Shown: positions 16,901 to 51,558 of the stretch, piece after piece
Layout of the letters: the number at the start of each line of letters is the position of its first letter
Numbering within the stretch: position 1 is the first letter of the stretch
NCBI RefSeq assembly: GCF_002854065.1
Contig: NZ_CP024147.1
Source: Escherichia coli
GTDB taxonomy: Bacteria; Pseudomonadota; Gammaproteobacteria; Enterobacterales; Enterobacteriaceae
Reading direction: 5' to 3' (one strand)
DNA: 64,000 bases
Notes under the pieces: generated by a model
The model's database searches: none
Seen by the model: only the letters and a program-made list of their open reading frames with translations
What the model was told of the DNA's origin: nothing
Made by a program: the position numbers and the translations under genes

Positions 16901-17421
16901 TGAGTTATTCGCTGTATTCTTCCTGGGTAACCTGTGTTTCTTTTGGTGGGTTTATTCCGGCATCACGAATATTTTTCTGCACCGCTACTGCACCAAACAA
17001 GCTTAAGAAGAAAGCCAGTCCATAAAAACCTTTTTCGCTGAGTAATAATGTCGCATTCCACAGACCTACCATCAGTAATGCAACAGAGATAATAAAGACA
17101 GTCAGGCAGGTCATATAATAAATGGAAGTGGTCGGTATGCCTTCATACTTGTCCCGAACAGTCTTTTGATAAGACGCCGCAGAAAACAGTCCTAATACCA
17201 GTACGGCAAAATAATATCCTTTTTCATTTAACTGCATCTCTGCATTCCATAGCCCTAACAGATAGGTAACGATACCACCAACGAGAGCTATCCATGACAC
17301 AATACTAAAGGCCGGTGAATAGGTTGATATTAGACTGGCCCCCTGAATCTCCAGACAACCAATATCACTTAAATAAGTGATAGTCTTAATACTAGTTTTT
17401 AGACTAGTCATTGGAGAACAG

Positions 17422-17787
17422 ATGATTGATGTCTTAGGGCCGGAGAAACGCAGACGGCGTACCACACAGGAAAAGATCGCAATTGTTCAGCAGAGCTTTG
17501 AACCGGGGATGACGGTCTCCCTCGTTGCCCGGCAACATGGTGTAGCAGCCAGCCAGTTATTTCTCTGGCGTAAGCAATACCAGGAAGGAAGTCTTACTGC
17601 TGTCGCCGCCGGAGAACAGGTTGTTCCTGCCTCTGAACTTGCTGCCGCCATGAAGCAGATTAAAGAACTCCAGCGCCTGCTCGGCAAGAAAACGATGGAA
17701 AATGAACTCCTCAAAGAAGCCGTTGAATATGGACGGGCAAAAAAGTGGATAGCGCACGCGCCCTTATTGCCCGGGGATGGGGAGTAA
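17422..17787 (+). CDS. insC: IS2 InsC
   Basis: [56 protein letters not shown]... behind GGAGA. Recognised as IS2 OrfA. Confidence 0.95.
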
Positions 17788-18650
17788 GCTTAGTCAGCCG
17801 TTGTCTCCGGGTGTCGCGTGCGCAGTTGCACGTCATTCTCAGACGAACCGATGACTGGATGGATGGCCGCCGCAGTCGTCACACTGATGATACGGATGTG
17901 CTTCTCCGTATACACCATGTTATCGGAGAGCTGCCCACGTATGGTTATCGTCGGGTATGGGCGCTGCTTCGCAGACAGGCAGAACTTGATGGTATGCCTG
18001 CGATCAATGCCAAACGTGTTTACCGGATCATGCGCCAGAATGCGCTGTTGCTTGAGCGAAAACCTGCTGTACCGCCATCGAAACGGGCACATACAGGCAG
18101 AGTGGCCGTGAAAGAAAGCAATCAGCGATGGTGCTCTGACGGGTTCGAGTTCTGCTGTGATAACGGAGAGAGACTGCGTGTCACGTTCGCGCTGGACTGC
18201 TGTGATCGTGAGGCACTGCACTGGGCGGTCACTACCGGCGGCTTCAACAGTGAAACAGTACAGGACGTCATGCTGGGAGCGGTGGAACGCCGCTTCGGCA
18301 ACGATCTTCCGTCGTCTCCAGTGGAGTGGCTGACGGATAATGGTTCATGCTACCGGGCTAATGAAACACGCCAGTTCGCCCGGATGTTGGGACTTGAACC
18401 GAAGAACACGGCGGTGCGGAGTCCGGAGAGTAACGGAATAGCAGAGAGCTTCGTGAAAACGATAAAGCGTGACTACATCAGTATCATGCCCAAACCAGAC
18501 GGGTTAACGGCAGCAAAGAACCTTGCAGAGGCGTTCGAGCATTATAACGAATGGCATCCGCATAGTGCGCTGGGTTATCGCTCGCCACGGGAATATCTGC
18601 GGCAGCGGGCTTGTAATGGGTTAAGTGATAACAGATGTCTGGAAATATAG
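17745..18650 (+). CDS. insD: IS2 InsD frame (DDE integrase domain, made as an InsCD fusion by a -1 frameshift)
   Basis: ...WCSDGFEF...WLTDNGSCY...[11 protein letters not shown]... (DDE motif). The A6G slippery site is at 17739-17745. Confidence 0.93.
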
Positions 18651-18723
18651 GGGCAAATCCAGATATTTTGTTGTCCATCACAGTATTCCTTTCATTCCTG
18701 AATGTGTAAGAGCTTTATATTGC

Positions 18724-38470: not shown

Positions 38471-39445
38471 ATGACAAAATTACAACTTAAGTACCGGGAG
38501 TTAAAAATTATCTCGGTAATCGCTGCCAGTGAAAATATCAGCCATGCTGCGACTGTACTTGGCATCGCACAGGCCAACGTCAGCAAATACCTTGCTGATT
38601 TTGAATCAAAAGTGGGTTTAAAAGTCTTTGACCGAACCACCCGGCAGCTGATGCTCACACCTTTTGGTACCGCGCTGTTACCGTACATCAACGACATGCT
38701 GGACAGAAACGAGCAGCTTAATAATTTTATTGCAGATTATAAGCATGAGAAACGTGGTCGGGTCACCATCTACGCCCCAACCGGCATAATTACCTATTTA
38801 TCCAAACATGTAATCGATAAAATTAAAGATATCGGTGATATAACCTTATCGCTAAAAACCTGCAATCTTGAGCGTAATGCCTTTTATGAAGGCGTCGAAT
38901 TTCCTGATGATTGTGATGTTTTAATCAGCTACGCTCCACCAAAAGATGAATCGCTGGTTGCCAGTTTTATTACACAATATGCCGTAACCGCTTATGCCAG
39001 CCAGCGCTATCTTGAGAAACATCCTATTAGCCGTCCTGACGAACTCGAACATCACTCCTGTATTTTGATCGACTCGATGATGATCGACGACGCGAATATC
39101 TGGCGCTTCAACGTCGCCGGGAGTAAAGAGGTGCGGGATTATCGCGTGAAGGGAAATTACGTTTGCGACAACACGCAATCTGCGCTGGAGCTGGCACGAA
39201 ATCACCTGGGGATTGTGTTTGCGCCAGACAAAAGTGTGCAGAGAGATCTGCAAGACGGCACGCTGGTGCCCTGCTTTCAGCACCCGTATGAATGGTGGCT
39301 GGATCTGGTGGCTATCTTCCGTAAACGGGAATACCAGCCCTGGCGGGTCCAGTATGTGCTGGATGAAATGCTGCGTGAAATTCGCCACCAGCTTGCTCAG
39401 TCGCAGCAACTGCGGCCTGAACAAGCGGCGGAAAGCGAAGATTAA
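38471..39445 (+). CDS. yiaU: LysR-family transcriptional regulator YiaU
   Basis: 324-aa ORF with the N-terminal HTH ...[23 protein letters not shown].... Confidence 0.9.
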
Positions 39446-40578
39446 TGATCGAGATAAAGGTAATGCACCCAGCTGGTCATGCGTAATAACACTTTGCGCA
39501 TCACCGAGACATGGCTGAAATGATCAGAGTAGACCGCCACCTGGGCGTAAATACCGTCTGGTAAAGCGCTCAAATCAGTGTGCTCATTCAGTTCAATGGT
39601 CGCGATAACGCCATCTGAACCCGGCGCTGTGTTTAACGTCTGTAAGGTGCCGGTCGACTGATAAGCTCCGCCGGGAACGGCTGGACTAATGGCTGCCAGC
39701 TTACCGCTGAATACCTTACCTGGCAGAGCATTAAACACCACTTCCGCATCGTCGCCAGGGGCCAGTCGCAGCAAGGAGTTCTGACGGAACTGCGCCACAA
39801 TTTGTCGTTTCTGATCGGGTATAAACACCATCACCGGACGTAGCGGCAGCGACGCGGCATAGGTACCCGGACGAATCAGTACCTGGGTCACATAACCATC
39901 GCTCGGCGCACGCACTATCGTCTGCTCAAGGTTATATTTTGCTTCCGCGAGCTGCGCTTTCAGGCTGGCGATTTGAGAATGTTCACCCAACACCAGGCTA
40001 TCCAGCTGGCTCTGGATCTGTTTTTGTTCCGCCGCCGATGACTTCACGGAGGCTTCCTGCGCCAGATAATTTTGCCGCGCCACATCGATATCGCGTTCTG
40101 AAAACGGGTTTACTTTCGCCTGGCTGCCGCGTGCGTAACGCTGATACTCTTTAGCGAATTTATCCCGCGTGGCCTTTGCCTGCTGAGTATTCGCCGCCAT
40201 CTCATCTAACTCTGCGCCCAACGCCCGCTGTTTATGTTCTGCGGTAACGATATCCGCCATCAGCCGATCCACCTGCGCCTGATAACGCGTCGGGTCCAGT
40301 CGAAATAGCACCTCACCTTTTTTAATTAGCGTATTTTTCTTGTCCGTCACTTCGATCACCACGCCTGTCACCTGCGGGACAACAGGAATAGAAATAACCG
40401 CTTTTTGCGCTTTAAAGGTATACGGATGGTTATAGTTCATTAACAGAATTAAACCGCTGACAATAAATATTCCACCCAGGGCCGCGGTGGGAATGGTCCA
40501 TTTATTTACAGGAATTTTGAAGATCTTAAACATTGCCCATGCGAAAGCCACATAGGTCAAAATAATCAGTAAATCCAT
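39442..40578 (-). CDS. yiaV: HlyD-family membrane-fusion-like protein YiaV
   Basis: 378 aa with N-terminal hydrophobic segments, a long coiled-coil ([37 protein letters not shown]...) and a beta-barrel region. Recognised as YiaV. Confidence 0.9.
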
Positions 40579-40583
40579 AAGTA

Positions 40584-40907
40584 TTACTCGGCAGAAGAGG
40601 ATTTGATGTCAGCGAGCTGTTTCTCCAGCCCAGCAATACGCTGTTGTAGTTGCACAACGGAGGAGTCATGGTTTTGCATTCCCCATCCCCGCTCCGGGCG
40701 GTAAAGCGTGGCCCAAATCCACAAAAATGGCCAGATAACATGCAGCGTAAAAAGACTCACCCAACCAGCAACATGAATGGCGTCGGCATGAGGATGATTA
40801 CGTTTTTTAGCAATCAGGTAGGGAATATCATGTAAAATAATAATCCCATAGAATATCACCAGAAATACAAAAATAAGCACTCCCAGTGCAAAATAGTCCA
40901 GGAACAT
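40584..40907 (-). CDS. yiaW: Small inner-membrane protein YiaW (DUF3302)
   Basis: [45 protein letters not shown]..., 107 aa. It ends 5 nt upstream of the yiaV start. Start trimmed to 40907. Confidence 0.88.
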
Positions 40908-41337
40908 ATTTCCCTCAGAGAATATAAAAAAGAACAATTAACACATATTATGAAATGCCATGATGCAGTGCAATTTCCTTATTTATATAACGACATATTA
41001 TTTTTTATATACTTTCTGAAGTGTGCTGCGTGGCTTTTCAACAGGTCGAGGTTTATCATATTGAAATAATGGAACTATTGGCCAAATTTATGATTAAAAA
41101 CCGTAAAACATCCACAATGCAGATTAAGCGTATTAAACCTTCAATAATCTACCGTTTATTGCTGATTGTCCTCGGAATACCAATGGTGATTTACGGTCTG
41201 GTTTGCCCGCTCACCATCGAAACGCGAGATTAAACTCCTGGCAAAACACACCCCAGAAACGCACTTTTGTTGGCGTAGTCTGGGTTATTGCACACGTAGG
41301 TTTAAAACGTAAATTGTAACAACGTGCGCTTTGTTTA

Positions 41338-41421
41338 TGCCGGATGCGGCGTGTACGCCTTATCCGGCCTACGGTCAGGTCCCCGTAGGCATGATAAGAC
41401 GCGTAAGCGTCGCATCAGGCA
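41338..41421. repeat. BIME (two REP units) downstream of aldB
   Basis: TGCCGGATGCGGCGTGTACGCCTTATCCGGCCTAC ... GTAGGCATGATAAGACGCGTAAGCGTCGCATCAGGCA. Confidence 0.88.
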
Positions 41422-41451
41422 ATTAATACCCGATGCGACCAGCTTCTTACA

Positions 41452-42990
41452 TCAGAACAGCCCCAACGGTTTATCTGAGTAGCTCACCAGCAGGCACTTG
41501 GTTTGCTGGTAATGCTCCAGCATCATCTTGTGGGTTTCGCGTCCAATGCCTGATTGTTTGTAGCCGCCAAACGCCGCATGTGCCGGGTAAGCGTGATAAC
41601 AGTTGGTCCACACGCGCCCGGCCTGAATGCCGCGCCCCATCTTATAGGCCAGATTACCGTTGCGGCTCCAGACGCCTGCGCCCAGGCCATATTGCGTATC
41701 GTTCGCCAGCTCCAGCGCTTCTTCCATCGTTTTGAAGGTGGTCACCGCCAGCACCGGGCCAAAAATCTCTTCCTGGAACACCCGCATATTGTTCTGACCA
41801 AACAGAATCGTCGGTTCAAGGTAGTAGCCGTCTTTCAGTTCGCCTTCCAGCAGCTTGCGCCGCCCGCCGGTGAGCACGTCTGCGCCCTCTTTTTTACCGA
41901 TATCAATGTAGTTGAGGATGGTTTCCAGTTGCCCGTGAGAAACCTGCGCACCCATTTGCGTCACGCTGTCGAGTGGGTTACCGCTGCGAATGCTTTCGAC
42001 ACGGCGGATGGCGCGTTCCATAAAGCGTTCGTAGATTGACTCCTGCACTAAGGCACGACTCGGACAGGTGCAAACTTCGCCCTGGTTAAAGGCAAACAGT
42101 GCAAAGCCTTCCAGCGCTTTATCGAAAAAGGCATCTTCTTCATCCATCACATCAGCAAAGAAGATATTTGGCGACTTACCGCCCAACTCCAGCGTCACCG
42201 GAATAATGTTTTGCGTTGCGTATTGCATAATTTGTTGGCCCACTTCCGTTGAGCCGGTAAACGCCACTTTGGCGATGCGTTTCGAGGTCGCCAGATATTC
42301 GCCAATTTCCCCACCTGCGCCATTGACCACGTTCACCACGCCCGGCGGCAGTAAATCACCGACAATTTCCATTAGCAGCAGTACAGAAAGCGGGGTAAGA
42401 CGTGCGGGTTTCAGCACCACACAGTTGCCCGCCGCCAGCGCGGGAGCCATTTTCCAGCTCGCCATCAGCAGCGGGAAGTTCCACGGGATAATCTGCCCCA
42501 CCACGCCTAACGGTTCATGGAAATGATAGGCCACGGTTTCGCTATCAACTTCACTGATCCCACCTTCCTGCGCCCGAATACACGAGGCGAAATAGCGGAA
42601 ATGGTCAATCGCCAGCGGTACATCCGCAGCACTGGTTTCGCGAATGGGTTTGCCGTTATCCCAGGTTTCAGCTGTCGCTAACAGCTCGAGGTTTTGTTCC
42701 ATTCGATCGGCAATCTTAAACAGAATCGCCGCGCGATCCTGCACCGAGGTGTGCGCCCATTTATCTTTCACTTTGTGCGCAGCATCCAGCGCCAGATCGA
42801 TGTCTCGTTTGCCCGAAGACGCCACTTCGCACAGCAGCTGCCCGGTCACCGGCGTCAGGTTCTGGTAATACTCACCATCGGCAGGGGCTACCCATTCGCC
42901 GCCAATAAAGTTGTCATAGCGGTTTTTTAACTTGAGGGGGAAACCATACTCGCCGGGCTTAATCTGTGCTGAAGGGGGATTATTGGTCAT
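41452..42990 (-). CDS. aldB: Aldehyde dehydrogenase B
   Basis: [36 protein letters not shown]..., 512 aa, with ALDH motifs (ELGGKSP, catalytic Cys in GEVCTCPSR). Start trimmed to 42990. Confidence 0.95.
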
Positions 42991-43154
42991 GATCGTCTCC
43001 TTGCGGTGTGAGGTATAACAAGGGTAGACGTGACTGGCGAAATCTTCGCCAGTCGGTAACAGCTTTACGACAGCTATCACGAATTTACGGGCAAGGATTA
43101 CAGAGATAGTTGAAAAAGCGGCTGACAATTTGCCAGCCGTTGTTGGAATGATGA

Positions 43155-44167
43155 TTACATTGCGGCGCGATAAATCGCCACAATTTCTTCGTGAGTTGCC
43201 TGGATCGGGTTAGTAAAGCCACAGGCATCTTTCAGGGCATTAGTCGCCAGAACCGCGAAATCTTCTTCTTTCACGTTCAGGTCGCGTAGGCCTGCCGGGA
43301 TATCCACTTTCTTCGCCAGTTCACGGATGGCGTTAATGCAGGCTTCAGCACCTTCCGCGTCGTTTTTACCTGTCACGTTCACGCCCATTGCAGCGGCACA
43401 GTCACGCAGACGTGCAGCGGCGACTTTGCTGTTGAATACCTGAACATGCGGCAGCAGAACGGCGTTACATACACCGTGTGGCAGGTTGTAGAAACCGCCC
43501 AGCTGGTGCGCCATCGCATGAACATAACCCAGAGAAGCATTATTGAACGCCATACCGGCGAGGAACTGGGCATAAGCCATTGCTTCACGCGCTTTCGCAT
43601 TACTGCCATCTTCAACGGCTAACGGCAGGTTTTCGGCAATCATGGTCACGGCTTTCAGTGCACAAGCGTCAGTGATCGGCGTGGCGGCAATAGAAACATA
43701 CGCTTCGATAGCGTGCGTTAAGGCATCCATACCCGTTGCGGCGGTCAGTGACTTCGGCATACCAATCATCAGAGAGGAGTCATTGACAGAAAGCAGCGGA
43801 GTGACATGTTTATCAACAATCGCCATTTTGATATGACGCGCTTCGTCAGTGATGATGCAGAAACGGGTCATTTCAGAGGCCGTACCCGCCGTGGTATTGA
43901 TGGCGATCATCGGCAGCTGCGGTTTTGCAGAGCGGTCAACGCCTTCGTAATCGCGAATATCGCCGCCATTGGCTGCCACCAGCGCAATACCTTTTGCGCA
44001 GTCGTGCGGAGAACCACCGCCTAAGGAAATCACGCTATCGCAATTATTTTCTTTAAGTAATTTCAAACCTGCAGCGACGTTTTCCGTGGTGGGGTTAGGT
44101 TGGGTGCCATCATAAATAATGCTAAAAATATTGCGTTCTTCCAGTGCTTTTTGCACATCGCCCGCCA
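43155..44167 (-). pseudogene. yiaY: Fe-dependent alcohol dehydrogenase YiaY, 5'-truncated by IS1
   Basis: The reading frame abuts the IS1 end at 44167/44168 and begins ...[20 protein letters not shown].... By my recollection of K-12 YiaY, about 46 N-terminal codons and the promoter are missing. Confidence 0.85.
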
Positions 44168-44182
44168 GGTAATGACTCCAAC

Positions 44183-44686
44183 TTATTGATAGTGTTTTAT
44201 GTTCAGATAATGCCCGATGACTTTGTCATGCAGCTCCACCGATTTTGAGAACGACAGCGACTTCCGTCCCAGCCGTGCCAGGTGCTGCCTCAGATTCAGG
44301 TTATGCCGCTCAATTCGCTGCGTATATCGCTTGCTGATTACGTGCAGCTTTCCCTTCAGGCGGGATTCATACAGCGGCCAGCCATCCGTCATCCATATCA
44401 CCACGTCAAAGGGTGACAGCAGGCTCATAAGACGCCCCAGCGTCGCCATAGTGCGTTCACCGAATACGTGCGCAACAACCGTCTTCCGGAGACTGTCATA
44501 CGCGTAAAACAGCCAGCGCTGGCGCGATTTAGCCCCGACATAGCCCCACTGTTCGTCCATTTCCGCGCAGACGATGACGTCACTGCCCGGCTGTATGCGC
44601 GAGGTTACCGACTGCGGCCTGAGTTTTTTAAGTGACGTAAAATCGTGTTGAGGCCAACGCCCATAATGCGGGCAGTTGCCCGGCAT
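44183..44686 (-). CDS. insB: IS1 insB' frame (copy A)
   Basis: 167-aa frame identical to that of copy 1. Confidence 0.9.
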
Positions 44687-44880
44687 CCAACGCCATTCAT
44701 GGCCATATCAATGATTTTCTGGTGCGTACCGGGTTGAGAAGCGGTGTAAGTGAACTGCAGTTGCCATGTTTTACGGCAGTGAGAGCAGAGATAGCGCTGA
44801 TGTCCGGCGGTGCTTTTGCCGTTACGCACCACCCCGTCAGTAGCTGAACAGGAGGGACAGCTGATAGAAACAGAAGCCAC
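44605..44880 (-). CDS. insA: IS1 InsA (copy A)
   Basis: 91 aa, identical to the InsA of copy 1. Confidence 0.95.
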
Positions 44881-44963
44881 TGGAGCACCTCAAAAACACC
44901 ATCATACACTAAATCAGTAAGTTGGCAGCATCACCTATTATTGTTTAGCAAAATTAATCTAAT

Positions 44964-45003
44964 AAAAAGCACATTGTATTCATTAAACAATGTGCTTTTT
45001 TTA
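44964..45003. terminator. Bidirectional hairpin terminator in the 85-bp spacer between the two IS1 copies (original selB terminator)
   Basis: AAAAAGCACATTGT (44965-44978) / ACAATGTGCTTTTT (44988-45001), flanked by an A-run and a T-run. Confidence 0.75.
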
Positions 45004-45035
45004 AAATCATAAGAATTTTGGGTAATGACTCCAAC

Positions 45036-45539
45036 TTATTGATAGTGTTTTATGTTCAGATAATGCCCGATGACTTTGTCATGCAGCTCCACCGATTTTG
45101 AGAACGACAGCGACTTCCGTCCCAGCCGTGCCAGGTGCTGCCTCAGATTCAGGTTATGCCGCTCAATTCGCTGCGTATATCGCTTGCTGATTACGTGCAG
45201 CTTTCCCTTCAGGCGGGATTCATACAGCGGCCAGCCATCCGTCATCCATATCACCACGTCAAAGGGTGACAGCAGGCTCATAAGACGCCCCAGCGTCGCC
45301 ATAGTGCGTTCACCGAATACGTGCGCAACAACCGTCTTCCGGAGCCTGTCATACGCGTAAAACAGCCAGCGCTGGCGCGATTTAGCCCCGACGTATCCCC
45401 ACTGTTCGTCCATTTCCGCGCAGACGATGACGTCACTGCCCGGCTGTATGCGCGAGGTTACCGACTGCGGCCTGAGTTTTTTAAATGGCGGAAAATCGTG
45501 TTGAGGCCAACGCCCATAATGCGGGCGGTTGCCCGGCAT
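45036..45539 (-). CDS. insB: IS1 insB' frame (copy B)
   Basis: 167-aa frame with several substitutions relative to copy A. Confidence 0.9.
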
Positions 45540-45733
45540 CCAACGCCATTCATGGCCATATCAATGATTTTCTGGTGCGTACCGGGTTGAGAAGCGGTGT
45601 AAGTGAACTGCAGTTGCCATGTTTTACGGCAGTGAGAGCAGAGATAGCGCTGATGTCCGGCAGTGCTTTTGCCGTTACGCACCACCCCATCAGTAGCTGA
45701 ACAGGAGGGACAGCTGATAGAAACAGAAGCCAC
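45458..45733 (-). CDS. insA: IS1 InsA (copy B)
   Basis: 91 aa, with one substitution relative to copy A. Confidence 0.95.
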
Positions 45734-45831
45734 TGGAGCACCTCAAAAACACCATCATACACTAAATCAGTAAGTTGGCAGCATCACCGAATTTTGTATT
45801 AATTTATTTTAAAACTTAATTAATCATTTCC

Positions 45832-47676
45832 TTATTTTTCCGGAAATAATAATGCGTCGCGCAATAAATGATCATTTCCACGACGACGCGTAAAGCCAAT
45901 GCGGTCAAAATATTCCAGGATTTGAATCGCCAGTTTTCGCCCAACCCCTAAGCGATCGCGGAAATCCGCCGCGCAGGTTGAACCACATTCCTGATCGAGA
46001 TCGCGGATCATATTGGCAAACTCGACAATCCGATCGTTACGGTAATAACGATCTTTGACGATCGCGGTAATTATCCCCTGTTGGGCCGCCTGGCGTAGCG
46101 TCAGACGCATTGCCTGCTCGTCGGTTCCCGTCTCTTTTGCCAGGTCACGCACCCACCACGGTTCGTCACCAAACAGCGGCTCTGCTTTTTGCCAGATGGC
46201 CTGCTGCTCTTCGCTGAAGCCCGCTTTGTGATCCGGCAGATGCAGCCAACCGTGATGACTGAGGATGTCGCCGCTTTCGCGCATCTTTTCAATCAGCAAC
46301 AGTACCAGCGCTTCATCTTCCATTGGCAACGCCATACGTCGCAGACGTTCGCGCCCAGGACCAGGTTCATCGCGATGTTGCTCATGATAAGTCGCTAATG
46401 TGTCGAGAATTTTCCGCTGCCAGCGGGCGGCAACTGGCGCATTCAACAAGCTATAACCAGCCTGAATATAGCCCGGCTGTTGCAGTAGTTCGCGCATCCC
46501 TTCGCCGTTGAGCTGGCGTGCCCAGGCGAAATCCGCAAGGTTAACCGCTCCGCGTTCCAGATGAACAGATAACGCATCGGCATCGCTCTGCGCCCGTGCA
46601 AGAGACGCCAGCCATTGCAGATATTCCGGCTTACGTTTACCGCGACGCGGCGGGTTAAGCATCACCACACGTGCCCCCGCCAGCGTATTGCGGGCCGAGA
46701 TATCGCGCAACACTAAGCGATCGTTATCCGCCAGCCACAGCGGCGTGTCGAACACCAGCTCGGCAAGGTTATCTTCCAGCAGCGAAACGCGTCCCGTAAC
46801 GTGGCTGGCGGCGTGGTGAATATGCAGCGGCTGCCACTGGGTCAGCGGCGTATGGGTTTGAAGCTCGACAATCACCCGCGTGAACGGCTCTGGCGGCACA
46901 TCGGCAAGCAGCCAGTCGCCACGGTTAATCTGCTCTTTTTCCGCATCCCCCGCGATGTTAAGCGCGATACGCTGGCCGGCATGAGCGGTTTCTGTTGGCT
47001 GGTTTTGTGCATGCAGCGCACGTACACGCATCGGTTTATTTACACCAGTCAGCCATAGTGAATCGCCTACCGTCACTTCCCCGCTTAACGCCGTACCGGT
47101 GACGACCAGCCCGGCACCTTTTACGGTAAATGCGCGGTCGATCGCGAGGCGGAAACTATGTTGGCTGGCGTGTTCACGTTCTGGTAACTGAAGCAGATGC
47201 TCGCGCAGGGCATCAATTCCCCGACCCTCGGTTGCTGCGGTGATAAACAGTTTTGCCTCAGCAAAACCGTATTCCCGCAGCACCTCCTTTACCTGGCGTT
47301 CAACCTCATTAACACGCGCTTCGTCCACGCGATCGGCTTTGGTCAGCGCCACTGTCAGCATCGGGTTACCGGTCAGCTGCAAAATCGCCAGATGCTCACG
47401 GGTCTGTGCCATCACACCGTCATCGCACGCCACCACCAACAGCGCGTGATCGATACCACCAACGCCCGCCAGCATGTTGGAAAGAAACTTTTCATGACCG
47501 GGTACGTCGATAAAACCAGGCACGCGACCATCCGGCTGCGGCCAGTAGGCATAGCCGAGATCGATGGTCATGCCGCGCTTTTTTTCTTCCGGCAGACGAT
47601 CGGCATTTACGCCAGTAATCGCCTGCAATAAGGTTGTTTTGCCGTGGTCAACGTGTCCGGCAGTCGCAATAATCAT
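45832..47676 (-). CDS. selB: Selenocysteine-specific translation elongation factor
   Basis: 614 aa, [45 protein letters not shown]..., recognised as SelB. Confidence 0.96.
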
Positions 47677-49064
47677 TTCAACAACATCTCCAAAAACCGT
47701 TGCTCATCTTCAAGGCAGCGTAAATCCAGCCACAATCGTCCGTCATAAATACGACCAATCACCGGCACTGGCAATTCACGCCAGCGGGCGGCTAATGACT
47801 CAAGGTGGCTACCGCGTCCATCATGGGGTGTAAACGTTAATGCCGCGCTCGGCAGGCGATCAACCGGCAGCGAACCACTGCCAATCTGCGAAAGACATGG
47901 CATAACCTGTACCGCAAACTCCGCGCCGTAATGTGCGGCAAGGGGAGCCTGTAAACGTTGTGCCTGGATTTGAATGACCTCTGCGCTGCGGGTAAGCAGG
48001 CGCAGGGTCGGTAATTTTTCACTCAGAGCTTCAGGGTGTAAATAAAGACGCAACGTGGCTTCCAACGCCGCGAGGGTCATTTTATCCGCGCGTAATGCAC
48101 GCTTCAGCGGGTGGCTTTGCAGGCGGGCGATCATCTCTTTTTTACCAACAATAATTCCTGCCTGCGGCCCGCCTAACAACTTGTCGCCGGAGAAGCTCAC
48201 CAGACTGACGCCCGCCGCAATCAACTCCTGCGGCATTGGCTCTTTCGGCAAACCGTACTGGCTAAGATCGACCAGCGAGCCACTGCCTAAATCAGTCACT
48301 ACGGGAACATCCAGCTCTTTGCCGAGCGCCACCAGTTCAGCTTCGTCTATCGCTTTGGTGAACCCCTGAATGCTGTAGTTACTGGTATGTACTTTCATCA
48401 ACAGTGCGGTATTTTCATTCACCGCCTGACGATAATCATTCGCGTGCGTGCGGTTGGTGGTCCCTACTTCGTGTAGGGTGCAGCCTGCCTGACGCATAAC
48501 ATCGGGAATACGAAACGCGCCGCCAATCTCCACCAGTTCGCCGCGAGATACCACTACCTCTTTCCCGCTGGCAATGGCCGCCAACATCAATAACACCGCC
48601 GCCGCATTGTTATTAACGATACAGGCATCTTCCGCCCCCGTAATACGGCACAGCAACTGCGCCAGCGCACGATCGCGATGTCCGCGTCCGGCGTCGTCCA
48701 GATCGTACTCGAGGGTCACTGGCGAACGCATAGCCTGCGCAACGGCTTCCACCGCGGCTTCCGCCTGTAAAGCTCGCCCAAGGTTGGTATGCAGCACGGT
48801 TCCCGTCAGGTTGATCACCGGACGCAGCGCACTCTGCGCCTCTTTCGTCAACCGGGCATCGACTTCTTGCGCCCAGTTTTCACACCACGCAGGCAGCGTC
48901 TGGCTGCCACGAATCACTTCTCGCGCTTCGTCGAGCATCTGACGCAACAATTCCACCACGCGGGTGTGACCATAAGTATCACGCAAAGAAAGGAAGGAGC
49001 TATCGCGCAATAAGCGATCAATAGCCGGAAGTTGACTATAGAGGGAACGCGTTTCGGTTGTCAT
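47673..49064 (-). CDS. selA: L-seryl-tRNA(Sec) selenium transferase
   Basis: 463 aa, [33 protein letters not shown].... The stop overlaps the selB start (ATGA). Confidence 0.96.
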
Positions 49065-49161
49065 AGGAAACCTGGCTGATCAAGGCCCTCTCACACGGAG
49101 AAGAGCGTTTAACATAACCACGGATTGTAACGTGAGATGGGTCAGGAGGACATATCGCGCA

Positions 49162-49770
49162 TCAAGCCTTTGGCGGTTCGGTGCGAGCAAAACTTTCGCG
49201 GCTAAACAGGTTTTCGACCAGTTTGACTAAGTGTGGGCGGTCGACACACCAACCTGGCGCAACGCGGCGGAAATTGAGATATCCGACGGCACAGGCAATA
49301 GCGATAGTCGCCAGATTGACCGTATCGGTTTTGAGTGTGCCATCGACCAGATATCCTTCCAGCACATCCAGACTGCGGTTGATTTTCTCCCGCTGGCGTA
49401 ACAATTCATCTTCAGACTGCTGCGCCGCTGGACGCGCCTGTTCACGCACCGATACCAGCCCGGCATCCATAATGCCATCCGCCAGTGCCTCAATTTTGCG
49501 CACCCGCAACGACTCCAGCGGATCGCGCGGCAACATCGCCGGAGCGACATTCATTAATTCAATATATTCAGCGATGATCGGCGAATCAAACCAGCATTCG
49601 CCCTCTTCGGTCACCAGCACCGGCACTTTTCCTAACGGGTTAAATTGCGCCACGCCGTTGTCCGCGTTATAGGGCAGTTCATTAATAAATTCGAAAGTTA
49701 TGCCCTTTTCTAACAACAGAATAGAAAGTTTGCGTACAAACGGGCTGGTGTAGCTACCGACGAGTTTCAT
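49162..49770 (-). CDS. yibF: Glutathione S-transferase-like protein YibF
   Basis: 202 aa, [31 protein letters not shown]... (GST N-terminal fold). Confidence 0.92.
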
Positions 49771-49840
49771 GCCGAGTCCTTTGTGCGAGGAAAAATATCA
49801 GTATGGCTCAGGCTCACGCAAAACACAGGTGATATAAGTC

Positions 49841-50977
49841 TCAATGATCCAAATAAAGATAATGCATCCAGCTGGTCATTCTTAGCAGCACTTTTCGCAT
49901 CACCGAAACATGGCTGAAATGGTCGGAGTAAACTGCCACCTGGGCGTAAATGCCGTCGGGTAAGGCATCGATATCATCGTTAGGGTCCAGTTCAATGGTT
50001 CCCAGCACACCGTCCGTGCCGGGCACGACCGTTAATGATTGCAATACCCCCTGCGCCTGATAAGAACCGCCTGGCACGACAGGTAAAATACTGGTCAGTT
50101 TGCCGTGGAACACCTGCCCAGGTAGCGCGTTAAACACCACTTCCGCATCATCGCCAGGTTTCAGACGTAACAGCGAGTTTTGCCGAAATTGGGCGACAAT
50201 TTGCCGTTTTTGCTCGGGGATGAAAACCATCACCGGACGCAACGGCAAGGCAGCTGCGTATGTGCCTGGGCGGATCAGTACCTGAGTGACGTAGCCATTG
50301 CTTGGTGCGCGAATGACGGTCTGTTCAAGGTTATATTTTGCTTCTGTAAGTTGCGCTCTTAAGCTCACAATCTGCGATTGCTCGCCGTTGACCATACTGT
50401 CGAGCTGACTCTGGATCTGCGCCTGCTCCGCCACCGAGCCTTTCACTAACGCATCCTGCGCGAGGAAATTTTGCCGCGCATCGTCGATGTCACGTTCCGA
50501 GAACGGATTCACCGCCGCCTGGCTGCCTTTCAGATAACGTTGATAATTTTTAAACAGACGGTCGCGCTCCGCTGAAACCTGGGTGGTGTTGGCCTGCGCT
50601 TCAGTGAGCTGCGCGCGCAGCGTCTTTATATTATGCGTCGCCGTCATCAGGTCAGCCTGAAGTCTGTCAACTCGCGCCTGGTAACGAACCGGGTCGAGCT
50701 TAAAAAGCACCTCGCCCTTTTGAATAAGCTGATTATTCTTGTCAGTGACTTCAGTAACAATTCCCGTCACCTGTGGCGTGATGGGGATCGCTATCACTGC
50801 CTTTTGCGCGGTAAAAGTGTAAGGGTGGTTGTAGTTCATCAACAAAATCAAACCACTCACCAGAAACACGCCTCCCAGCGCCGCCGTCGCCAGCGTCCAC
50901 TGATTCACCGGAATGCGGAAGATTTTAAAGACCGCCCACGCCAACGCCACGTAAGTTAAAACAATCAATAGATCCAT
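49841..50977 (-). CDS. yibH: HlyD-family membrane-fusion-like protein YibH (paralog of YiaV)
   Basis: 378 aa, collinear with YiaV from MDLLI.LTYVA.AWA.FKIF.IPVN.W to the shared C-terminus [37 protein letters not shown]. Confidence 0.9.
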
Positions 50978-50979
50978 AA

Positions 50980-51342
50980 TTAGATCTCCGGGAACGTGGA
51001 ATAGTCAGTCTTTTTCTCGGCGGCGAGTTGGTGCTCCAGCCGGGAAATTCGGTCAGAAAGTGCGGCGATTTCCGGGTCAGTCGCTTTCTCCTGCGACGCA
51101 ACATGTGACTGCATACCCCAGCCACGCTCCGGTTGATAGAGCGTCGCCCAGATCCACAGAAACGGCCAGATAACATGCAGAGTAAACAGGCTCACCCAGC
51201 CCGCCGTATGAATAGCGTCGGCATGGGGATGGTTGCGCTTTTTGGCAATCAGATAAGGGATGTCATGTATCGCGATGATTCCATAAAAAATCACCAGAAA
51301 GACGAAGATCAGCACTCCCAACGCGAAATAGTTTAGAAACAT
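50980..51342 (-). CDS. yibI: Small inner-membrane protein YibI (DUF3302, paralog of YiaW)
   Basis: 120 aa. The first ~77 residues are nearly identical to YiaW. It ends 2 nt before the yibH start. Confidence 0.88.
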
Positions 51343-51558
51343 ATTTGCCTCGGATTCACGTTTATCAGTGTTGTTTTTTGGCTGGCAGCCAGAAGGGAGT
51401 CAGGCTGATATTTTGACAATAATCCGGGTTCGCGATTCTCGCCATAACACCAAAGAATAATTTTTAGAGGTGATGAGTTGCTTAGTTACATAACGATTGT
51501 ATGACGAAGGCATAACATGCTGTAGATCACATCAGGTGAACGCCGTAAGAAAATATCT

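Follow-up and report, generated by a model that had tools for sequence, protein, structure and literature searches.

A conserved DUF3302-adaptor gene pair without an adjacent transporter gene, present as two paralogous cassettes in Escherichia coli

Gene pairs and their neighborhoods

The 64,000-nucleotide (nt) stretch of Escherichia coli chromosome analyzed here (contig NZ_CP024147.1 of assembly GCF_002854065.1; hereafter, the window) carries on its minus strand two co-oriented cassettes of two genes each, yiaW-yiaV and yibI-yibH, which lie 10,435 nt apart from start to start. In both, a gene for a small membrane protein of the DUF3302 family directly precedes a gene for a periplasmic adaptor. 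From its ATG, yiaW (40584-40907, minus strand) encodes a DUF3302 protein of 107 amino acids (aa), whose two hydrophobic helices are connected by a His-rich loop and followed by a short heptad tail; a longer open reading frame (ORF) with a TTG start reaches 40937. After a gap of 5 nt follows yiaV (39442-40578, minus strand), encoding a 378-aa EmrA-like membrane-fusion (periplasmic adaptor) protein, as assigned from the ORF, Pfam matches, an AlphaFold2 (AF2) model, and Foldseek searches. The second cassette comprises yibI (50980-51342, minus strand), whose 120-aa product is assigned to DUF3302 from its ORF and Pfam match, and, 2 nt further on, yibH (49841-50977, minus strand), encoding another 378-aa adaptor. 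Shine-Dalgarno-like sequences can be read on the minus strand 4 nt upstream of the yiaW ATG (GAGGG, 40912-40916) and 5 nt upstream of the yibI ATG (GAGG, 51348-51351). The four names are those given in the annotation of the closest complete E. coli genome; these are known E. coli y-genes, annotated but uncharacterized. A sequence-only reading of the window had described the co-orientation, the coordinates, a spacing of ~10.4 kb, the shared architecture, the gaps of 5 and 2 nt, and adaptors of exactly 378 aa, all of which are borne out by the ORFs. It had also reported that neither cassette has a pump or channel partner in the window, and in the region of the closest complete E. coli genome that is collinear with the window, the annotation shows neither an efflux pump gene nor a gene for an outer-membrane channel.

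As judged from gene order and conservation, yiaW-yiaV and yibI-yibH are a real, conserved two-gene envelope module, a strict pair without an adjacent transporter gene. The evidence comes from a survey of DUF3302-HlyD gene neighborhoods, which the sequence-only reading had suggested. It covered approximately 170 loci, from Enterobacterales, Aeromonas, Vibrio, Shewanella, Marinobacter, Chromatiaceae, Methyloceanibacter, and metagenome lineages, and was run in four ways: over species-representative genomes, over named non-Enterobacterales genomes, as a metagenome scan, and through adaptor-first look-ups. The two collection scans contributed their best 80 loci each, many of the metagenome contigs were short, and the genes in fetched loci are simple ORF calls made for this analysis.

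The scan of species-representative genomes with a DUF3302 alignment, followed by ORF calling and clustering, yielded 80 Enterobacterales loci with 87 YiaV-like genes. A DUF3302 gene was located directly upstream on the same strand for 86 of these, mostly at a distance of 2, 4, or 5 nt, and the sole unpaired adaptor turned out to be an ORF-calling error. Adaptor length was exactly 378 aa in 78 of the 87 copies. The genes flanking the pairs varied, with mtlA, yibF, yiaU, and aldB among many more, and included no pump. In the Aeromonas, Vibrio, Shewanella, Marinobacter, and Chromatiaceae genomes, DUF3302 was again followed by an adaptor, of 317 to 381 aa, amid unrelated neighbors. Another 80 loci came from the metagenome scan, for which distant DUF3302 proteins served as seeds; over these and nine loci fetched from named non-Enterobacterales genomes, we counted 61 pairs and 16 more cases in which the contig stops after DUF3302, and all loci that initially looked unpaired resolved to a pair or a decayed pair. 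The adaptors formed 29 clusters at 80% identity, with full-length members 34 to 45% identical to YiaV. Pfam scans of up to two flanking genes on each side of 29 diverse pairs gave no recurrent ABC_tran, MFS, FUSC, or OEP match, and ACR_tran was found in 1 of 41 in the scans of genes flanking diverse pairs. Adaptor-first look-ups, including one in a Methyloceanibacter (Alphaproteobacteria) genome, once more revealed DUF3302 upstream and no transporter. In summary, no transporter or outer-membrane-channel gene recurs near the pair across the ~170 loci, nor is a third gene conserved in any lineage sampled; the hallmark of a tripartite pump, an ABC, RND, MFS, or FUSC gene in the same operon or neighborhood, is absent from the window region and nowhere recurrent.

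Since the survey brought up no conserved third gene, we favor a self-contained module over a borrowed, distant partner, the two possibilities that the sequence-only reading had put forward, and we consider it highly likely that the DUF3302-adaptor pair forms an obligate module of two genes that is complete in itself at the level of the operon. That a partner is nevertheless encoded elsewhere is possible, though on the whole unlikely: YiaV and YibH, with the DUF3302 protein as an accessory (like AcrZ or AaeX), would then serve a distant transporter in trans, together with TolC. E. coli has the FUSC-family proteins YccS, YhfK, and YeeA and many MFS and ABC exporters without an adjacent adaptor. 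Adaptor genes normally share an operon with their pump, however, and no linked transporter emerged even from loci representing 29 diverse adaptor clusters. Moreover, DUF3302 is never absent and is conserved like the adaptor, beyond what would be expected of a dispensable accessory.

One locus does bring a pump close to the pair. In a Chromatiaceae genome (L087/L088:3331-9299), a gene for an RND adaptor, one for an AcrB-family pump, and an ORF of 92 aa immediately precede the pair, with all of these genes on one strand; a nearby pump was seen at no other locus. The presence of an RND pair just upstream in this one lineage could be taken to favor a partner in trans, but the pump in question has its own adaptor gene.

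Other genes near the pair were seen only locally. MscS-family mechanosensitive channel genes occur within two genes upstream of the pair for 3 of 41 upstream proteins scanned (positions L084:6115-6738 and L143:185-3634, inferred from ORF size and annotation, plus one further locus), which is too few for an association. In four loci, the Methyloceanibacter genome (L178:1904-2356) and three metagenome contigs (L180:8182-8655, L156:3937-4407, and L139:8971-9426), a gene for a soluble protein of ~150 aa directly follows the adaptor gene; it shares the strand of the adaptor gene in three loci and lies on the opposite one in the fourth. Its copies show 64 to 72% identity with each other and have no significant Pfam family match; the gene is not general across loci and may be a clade-specific associate or simply reflect shared synteny. 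Finally, no natural DUF3302-adaptor fusion that would fix the topology was found. P0391 (446 aa) was dismissed as an internal duplication artifact, and a 495-aa ORF in L170 was dismissed as the product of frameshifts. On a third candidate, a metagenome contig (L114:7731-8459), a deletion has taken out most of the adaptor gene and left its last ~25 codons (…IRRILLRMRSWQNYIFMEGH) fused in frame to DUF3302; a single case was deemed too weak and was not used as evidence for a fusion.

Adaptor fold and the small membrane partner

YiaV scored above the Pfam cut-offs for HlyD_D23 (57.3 bits; cut-off, 26.5), HlyD_3 (44.7; cut-off, 30), and CusB_dom_1 (26.5; cut-off, 22.2), and the results for YibH were similar. 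A single-sequence AF2 run of the YiaV monomer was poor, with a predicted local distance difference test (pLDDT) score of 52, and a rerun with a 92-sequence alignment reached 80.7. The resulting model comprises N-terminal helices (residues 2 to 19 and 28 to 50), lipoyl and barrel strands, hairpin helices (97 to 152 and 161 to 218; ~56 residues per arm), and C-terminal helices (355 to 366 and 368 to 374). With this model, Foldseek returned 70 Protein Data Bank (PDB) matches at an expectation value (E) of ≤0.001, and all 50 listed were adaptor chains; the best match was EmrA in the EmrAB-TolC cryo-electron microscopy structure (E, 3e-22; template-modeling score, 0.63 to 0.68; 20% identity), which is also the best PDB match by sequence (E, 8e-12). 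Family scores and predicted fold thus both place YiaV and YibH in the membrane-fusion, or periplasmic adaptor, superfamily. Within it, YiaV did not reach the NCBIfam cut-offs for TIGR00998 (EmrA/EmrK; 112.5 versus 390.8 bits), NF007785 (MdtN; 112.9 versus 376), NF007850 (AaeA; 62.3 versus 400), or NF011715 (EmrA; 52.9 versus 563), and neither did YibH, with similar scores. These subthreshold matches put the adaptor closest to the MdtN/EmrA/AaeA group, with MdtN on top (E of ~1e-32 for MdtN and EmrA/EmrK and of 1e-17 to 1e-21 for AaeA). PADLOC defense models gave no real match, only two marginal ones at the YibH alpha-hairpin region (E, 0.005 and 0.0057).

EmrA, from the MFS-type EmrAB-TolC system (PDB 8zar and 8zal; PMC13139468), shares with YiaV the N-terminal membrane anchor, the lipoyl domain, the long alpha-hairpin, and the beta-barrel domain; it has no membrane-proximal (MP) domain (PMC13139468), and in the YiaV model only the tail helices lie beyond the barrel, with no further domain. 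The two proteins are, however, only 19 to 20% identical, and YiaV scores 113 bits against the 391-bit cut-off of the EmrA/EmrK family. YiaV has two membrane helices, against one in EmrA; its tail is a separate, conserved amphipathic segment, whereas the C-terminal helix of EmrA packs against the hairpin; and emrA is followed by emrB, whereas yiaV and yibH are without a transporter gene. When YiaV and YibH were aligned with E. coli MdtN, AaeA, YdhJ, and EmrA (19 to 25% identity), the first membrane helix was present only in YiaV and YibH, and the barrel motif W-x-R-x-x-Q-R-x-P-V-R, found in all four relatives, was absent from both. On this alignment, the extra N-terminal membrane helix is the clearest difference between YiaV/YibH and their four E. 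coli relatives.

The operons aaeX-aaeA-aaeB, ydhI-ydhJ-ydhK, and ytcA-mdtN-mdtO-mdtP resemble the cassettes in that a small membrane-protein or lipoprotein gene directly precedes the gene for an EmrA-like adaptor. Unlike in the cassettes, a FUSC/PET-type transporter gene comes next, joined in mdtNOP by an outer-membrane factor gene, and the adaptors AaeA, YdhJ, and MdtN (23 to 25% identical to YiaV) are without the first membrane helix, the hairpins of AaeA and YdhJ also being much shorter. The sequence-only reading had compared the cassettes with aaeXAB, a comparison that holds for the architecture but does not extend to the small proteins: DUF3302 and DUF1656 (AaeX and YdhI) have no detectable homology, with hhalign probabilities of 0.1% and 0.5% and no DUF1656 Pfam match at an E of ≤10. 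Similarly, the C-terminal tail that it had singled out as shared and atypical is indeed shared, with one difference between YiaV and YibH in 27 residues, but is not wholly atypical, as a related, shorter motif (SFFRKMAHRLREF / FFRKMAHRLREF) forms the C-terminal end of AaeA, alone among the four relatives aligned. A transporter in trans gains some credit from all this, since the closest families by both sequence and fold (MdtN, EmrA/EmrK, and AaeA) are pump adaptors, a small gene stands before the adaptor gene in their operons too, and AaeA has a short version of the tail motif; the lack of detectable homology between DUF3302 and DUF1656 tells against it. An adaptor without an assigned transporter is also not unique in itself, reviews noting orphans with an adaptor fold such as BACEGG_01895 (PDB 4L8J; PMC8277102). 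Orphans of that type are isolated structural-genomics cases, whereas the orphan state of YiaV and YibH is a conserved family property, tied to a small membrane partner.

Conservation is distributed unevenly along the adaptor. Residues 1 to 52 of YiaV (40423..40578, minus strand) are predicted, from hydropathy and AF2, to form the two membrane helices, joined by a short basic loop and followed by an invariant NYNHP; 18 of the 60 invariant columns of the 92-sequence adaptor alignment fall within this segment. Residues 97 to 220 (39919..40290, minus strand) make up the long alpha-helical hairpin of the AF2 model, with the invariant R147 near its tip, and residues 351 to 378 (39445..39528, minus strand) make up the C-terminal tail, recognized from the AF2 helices and from conservation, with R361, R366, W370, and H378 invariant in the same alignment and a hydrophobic moment of 0.37 to 0.43. 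Among 15 diverse adaptors, mean pairwise identity was 0.60 in the two-helix anchor with NYNHP, 0.55 to 0.61 in the lipoyl halves, 0.55 in the C-terminal tail, 0.44 in the beta-barrel, and 0.28 in the alpha-hairpin, the least conserved part, which is also 30 to 60 residues shorter in several lineages (those with adaptors of 317 to 345 aa).

A poorly conserved, length-variable hairpin next to conserved membrane-proximal parts might suggest that the pair moves no substrate at all and acts instead as an envelope scaffold or sensor, affecting permeability, adhesion, or stress signaling. We regard this as rather improbable. The whole adaptor fold, including the hairpin and its invariant near-tip Arg, is retained in all lineages, and the family consensus at the tip, R-x3-L-x6-A, with R147 invariant, resembles the R-x3-L-x6-G of EmrA (the outer-membrane-factor docking motif being of the type R-x3-L-x6-S). 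In addition, we are aware of no EmrA-like adaptor whose role is purely structural.

As for the orientation of the anchor, helix 2 of YiaV should run from inside to outside, because the periplasmic domains must sit in the periplasm; the basic loop would therefore be cytoplasmic and the N terminus periplasmic.

Both small proteins passed the gathering score of DUF3302 (PF11742), set at 32 bits, with YiaW at 147 bits (E, 1.8e-43) and YibI at 140 bits (E, 2.7e-41); in public proteins, the family amounts to 883 clusters at 50% identity. According to the family alignment, its most conserved core corresponds to YiaW residues 26 to 66 (40710..40832, minus strand), i.e., the loop and the Trp-rich second helix. 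Across 26 diverse DUF3302 proteins, P29, P39, A43, W49, S51, W59, P60, and W65 are invariant; the frequency of the top residue is 0.79 to 0.83 in the core (loop and helix) and 0.32 in the tail. The heptad segment noted earlier in both tails is present as a heptad-like Leu/Ile segment and is in fact a feature of the whole family, with L87 at least 90% conserved in the same alignment. DUF3302 showed no significant match to other Pfam families, and its best PDB match, to a rhodopsin helix pair at an E of 0.02, was treated as noise.

The paralogous cassettes and local insertions

YiaV and YibH align without gaps and are identical at 290 of 378 positions (77%) and 87% similar, in line with the 70 to 80% estimated by eye. 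YiaW and YibI are 74% identical overall, and over the first 77 aligned residues, the part previously called nearly identical, five differences were read. Nonsynonymous divergence (dN) is 0.18 for yiaV/yibH and 0.058 for the first 80 codons of yiaW/yibI, and synonymous sites are saturated. The cassettes yiaWV and yibIH are true paralogs. Saturated synonymous divergence (dS) together with a low dN indicates an old duplication, with purifying selection acting on both copies. Gene conversion between the cassettes was rejected on the grounds that the genes share 70% nucleotide identity, spread evenly and without any near-identical stretch, that synonymous sites are saturated, and that the upstream regions are unrelated.

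The distribution of the two copies indicates that they are not equivalent. Of 5426 complete E. coli genomes, 5406 (99.6%) carry yibIH, which also occurs across Enterobacterales, whereas yiaWV is found in 3800 (70%) and missing from 30%. The adaptors of Serratia, Yersinia, Pantoea, Klebsiella, Enterobacter, and other genera are nearer to YibH (0.76 to 0.94 identity, with two divergent copies lower) than to YiaV (0.72 to 0.79), and YiaV-type adaptors (≥0.87) are confined to Escherichia, Citrobacter, and one unclassified Enterobacteriaceae genome, always next to yiaU. By these comparisons, yibIH is the ancestral, core copy and yiaWV a lineage-restricted one that is frequently lost or decayed. Both yiaW and yiaV are frameshifted in Shigella flexneri SFBU0723 (L046:10001-11460), and in Pseudocitrobacter cyperus (L008:10001-10413), yiaW is intact and yiaV is cut to its first 28 codons; an intact yibI-yibH is kept in the latter genome and in the E. 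coli collection.

Such absences, frameshifts, and stubs are what one would expect if the cassettes were remnants of former three-gene efflux operons without a present function, an explanation that fits the patchy yiaWV only and that we hold to be very improbable. For yibIH, it is effectively refuted by its near-universal presence in E. coli. The constant adaptor length in Enterobacterales, a dN far below the saturated dS, and intact pairs in named gammaproteobacterial genera, one alphaproteobacterial genome, and metagenome lineages likewise contradict it.

Apart from three insertion sequence (IS) insertions, the window is collinear with E. coli strain 100416 at 99.9 to 100% identity. One of the three lies between the cassettes (44168-45788) and consists of two tandem IS1 copies on the minus strand, which share a 300-nt repeat at 100% identity, one repeat starting 853 nt from the start of the other. 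It replaces ~286 bp of the 5' end of yiaY, leaving a truncated 333-aa yiaY ORF (43155-44156); in the otherwise near-identical strain 100416, yiaY is intact. Approximately 1.6 kb of the spacing between the cassettes is accounted for by this strain-specific double insertion. The other two, again relative to strain 100416, are a 768-bp, IS1-sized insertion at 461-1228 and a 1330-bp insertion at 17332-18661, another IS-sized element. Additionally, yibF and yibH are separated by just ~70 nt in the window (49771-49840). Since the corresponding interval in K-12 contains rhsA, yibJ, yibG, and yibV (PMC11551758), the RhsA element is missing at this site in the window strain.

A proposed two-protein assembly and its possible role

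The best explanation for the strict pairing, which we put forward tentatively, is an obligate assembly of an inner-membrane and a periplasmic protein, in which DUF3302 would replace the pump of EmrAB-TolC. The DUF3302 protein and the adaptor would be made together and assemble in the inner membrane, the former as the adaptor's inner-membrane partner rather than as an accessory of a linked pump. The single-helix anchors of ordinary adaptors show little conservation. In both proteins of the pair, the membrane-associated parts are among the best conserved, and this strong conservation suggests that DUF3302 and the adaptor make specific contacts in or at the membrane. If the EmrA hexamer is taken as a guide, the stoichiometry would probably be 6:6, which would give ~24 membrane helices and six surface-lying tails in the position that, in EmrAB-TolC (TolC3:EmrA6:EmrB1; PMC13139468), is taken by six EmrA helices and the 14 helices of one EmrB. 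A tube of adaptor hairpin, lipoyl, and barrel domains would project into the periplasm, and long-hairpin forms, including those of E. coli, could reach TolC. Most likely, the putative assembly would serve as a conduit of low activity that, under specific conditions, exports or vents a small molecule or ion. Conserved His and Asp residues in the DUF3302 loop, as well as the adaptor NYNHP, are candidate binding or proton-relay sites; we speculate that such residues in the loop, in NYNHP, and in the tail take part in ion, metal, or proton handling.

Several points weigh against such an assembly. All characterized relatives of the adaptor (EmrA, MdtN, and AaeA) work together with a true transporter. 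Hairpin length differs by 30 to 60 residues between lineages, so that a geometry spanning the periplasm at a fixed length is not universal. Docking to TolC is plausible but unproven, since the tip consensus is near that of EmrA, yet E. coli YiaV and YibH carry Gly at the conserved tip Leu position, plus a two-residue insertion. A positive-inside count for YiaW over 28 nonredundant homologs gave 2.9 Lys plus Arg in the loop and 3.5 in the outer segments, values too close to fix its topology. The named taxa of the survey are mostly Gammaproteobacteria, with one alphaproteobacterial genome, and most metagenome loci come without a taxon. Lastly, published phenotypes are weak: yibH serves as a neutral integration site, and a yiaW insertion was without phenotype in the sole assay reported, phagosome LAMP1 association in macrophages.

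In the searchable literature, we found no functional study on yiaW, yiaV, yibI, or yibH, no experimental data on TolC-dependent export by YiaV or YibH, and no drug phenotype, and yiaW and yiaV go unmentioned in the YiaU/LpsR paper. What has been reported is that the yibI promoter is induced by urine in uropathogenic E. coli (UPEC), that the deletion mutant is less fit in urine (competitive index, 0.33), and that the deletion lowers adhesion to bladder cells (PMC5404293); that yiaW deletion, according to a second-hand report, raises Ca2+-mediated transformation efficiency; and that yiaV is mildly induced in mixed biofilms. Mild, envelope-type effects of this kind, and the lack of a drug phenotype in that literature, would also suit a scaffold or sensor, the explanation that the retained adaptor fold and hairpin tip speak against.

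Returning to the proposed two-protein assembly, a bolder version of it, which we consider doubtful, is that the pair constitutes a trans-envelope conduit of a fourth kind. In place of an ABC, RND, MFS, or PET transporter, its inner-membrane component would consist of small two-helix proteins arranged in a ring and interdigitated with the two-helix anchors of the adaptor, making up a minimal system that acts either alone or with TolC. What is new here is a pump-less subfamily of EmrA-like adaptors, whose defining features are a second membrane helix at the N terminus and a conserved tail and which is always paired with DUF3302.

Periplasmic adaptors have so far been understood only as connectors between an energized inner-membrane pump and an outer-membrane channel. 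A family of adaptors that is never linked to a pump and always linked to DUF3302 implies either a minimal, unrecognized envelope conduit or a hidden partnership in trans. In either case, this would provide a function for four E. coli y-genes, one pair of which belongs to the core genome, and an addition to the TolC-related systems of efflux and envelope physiology, and the urine-fitness and adhesion defects of the UPEC yibI mutant hint that it may be relevant to the host.

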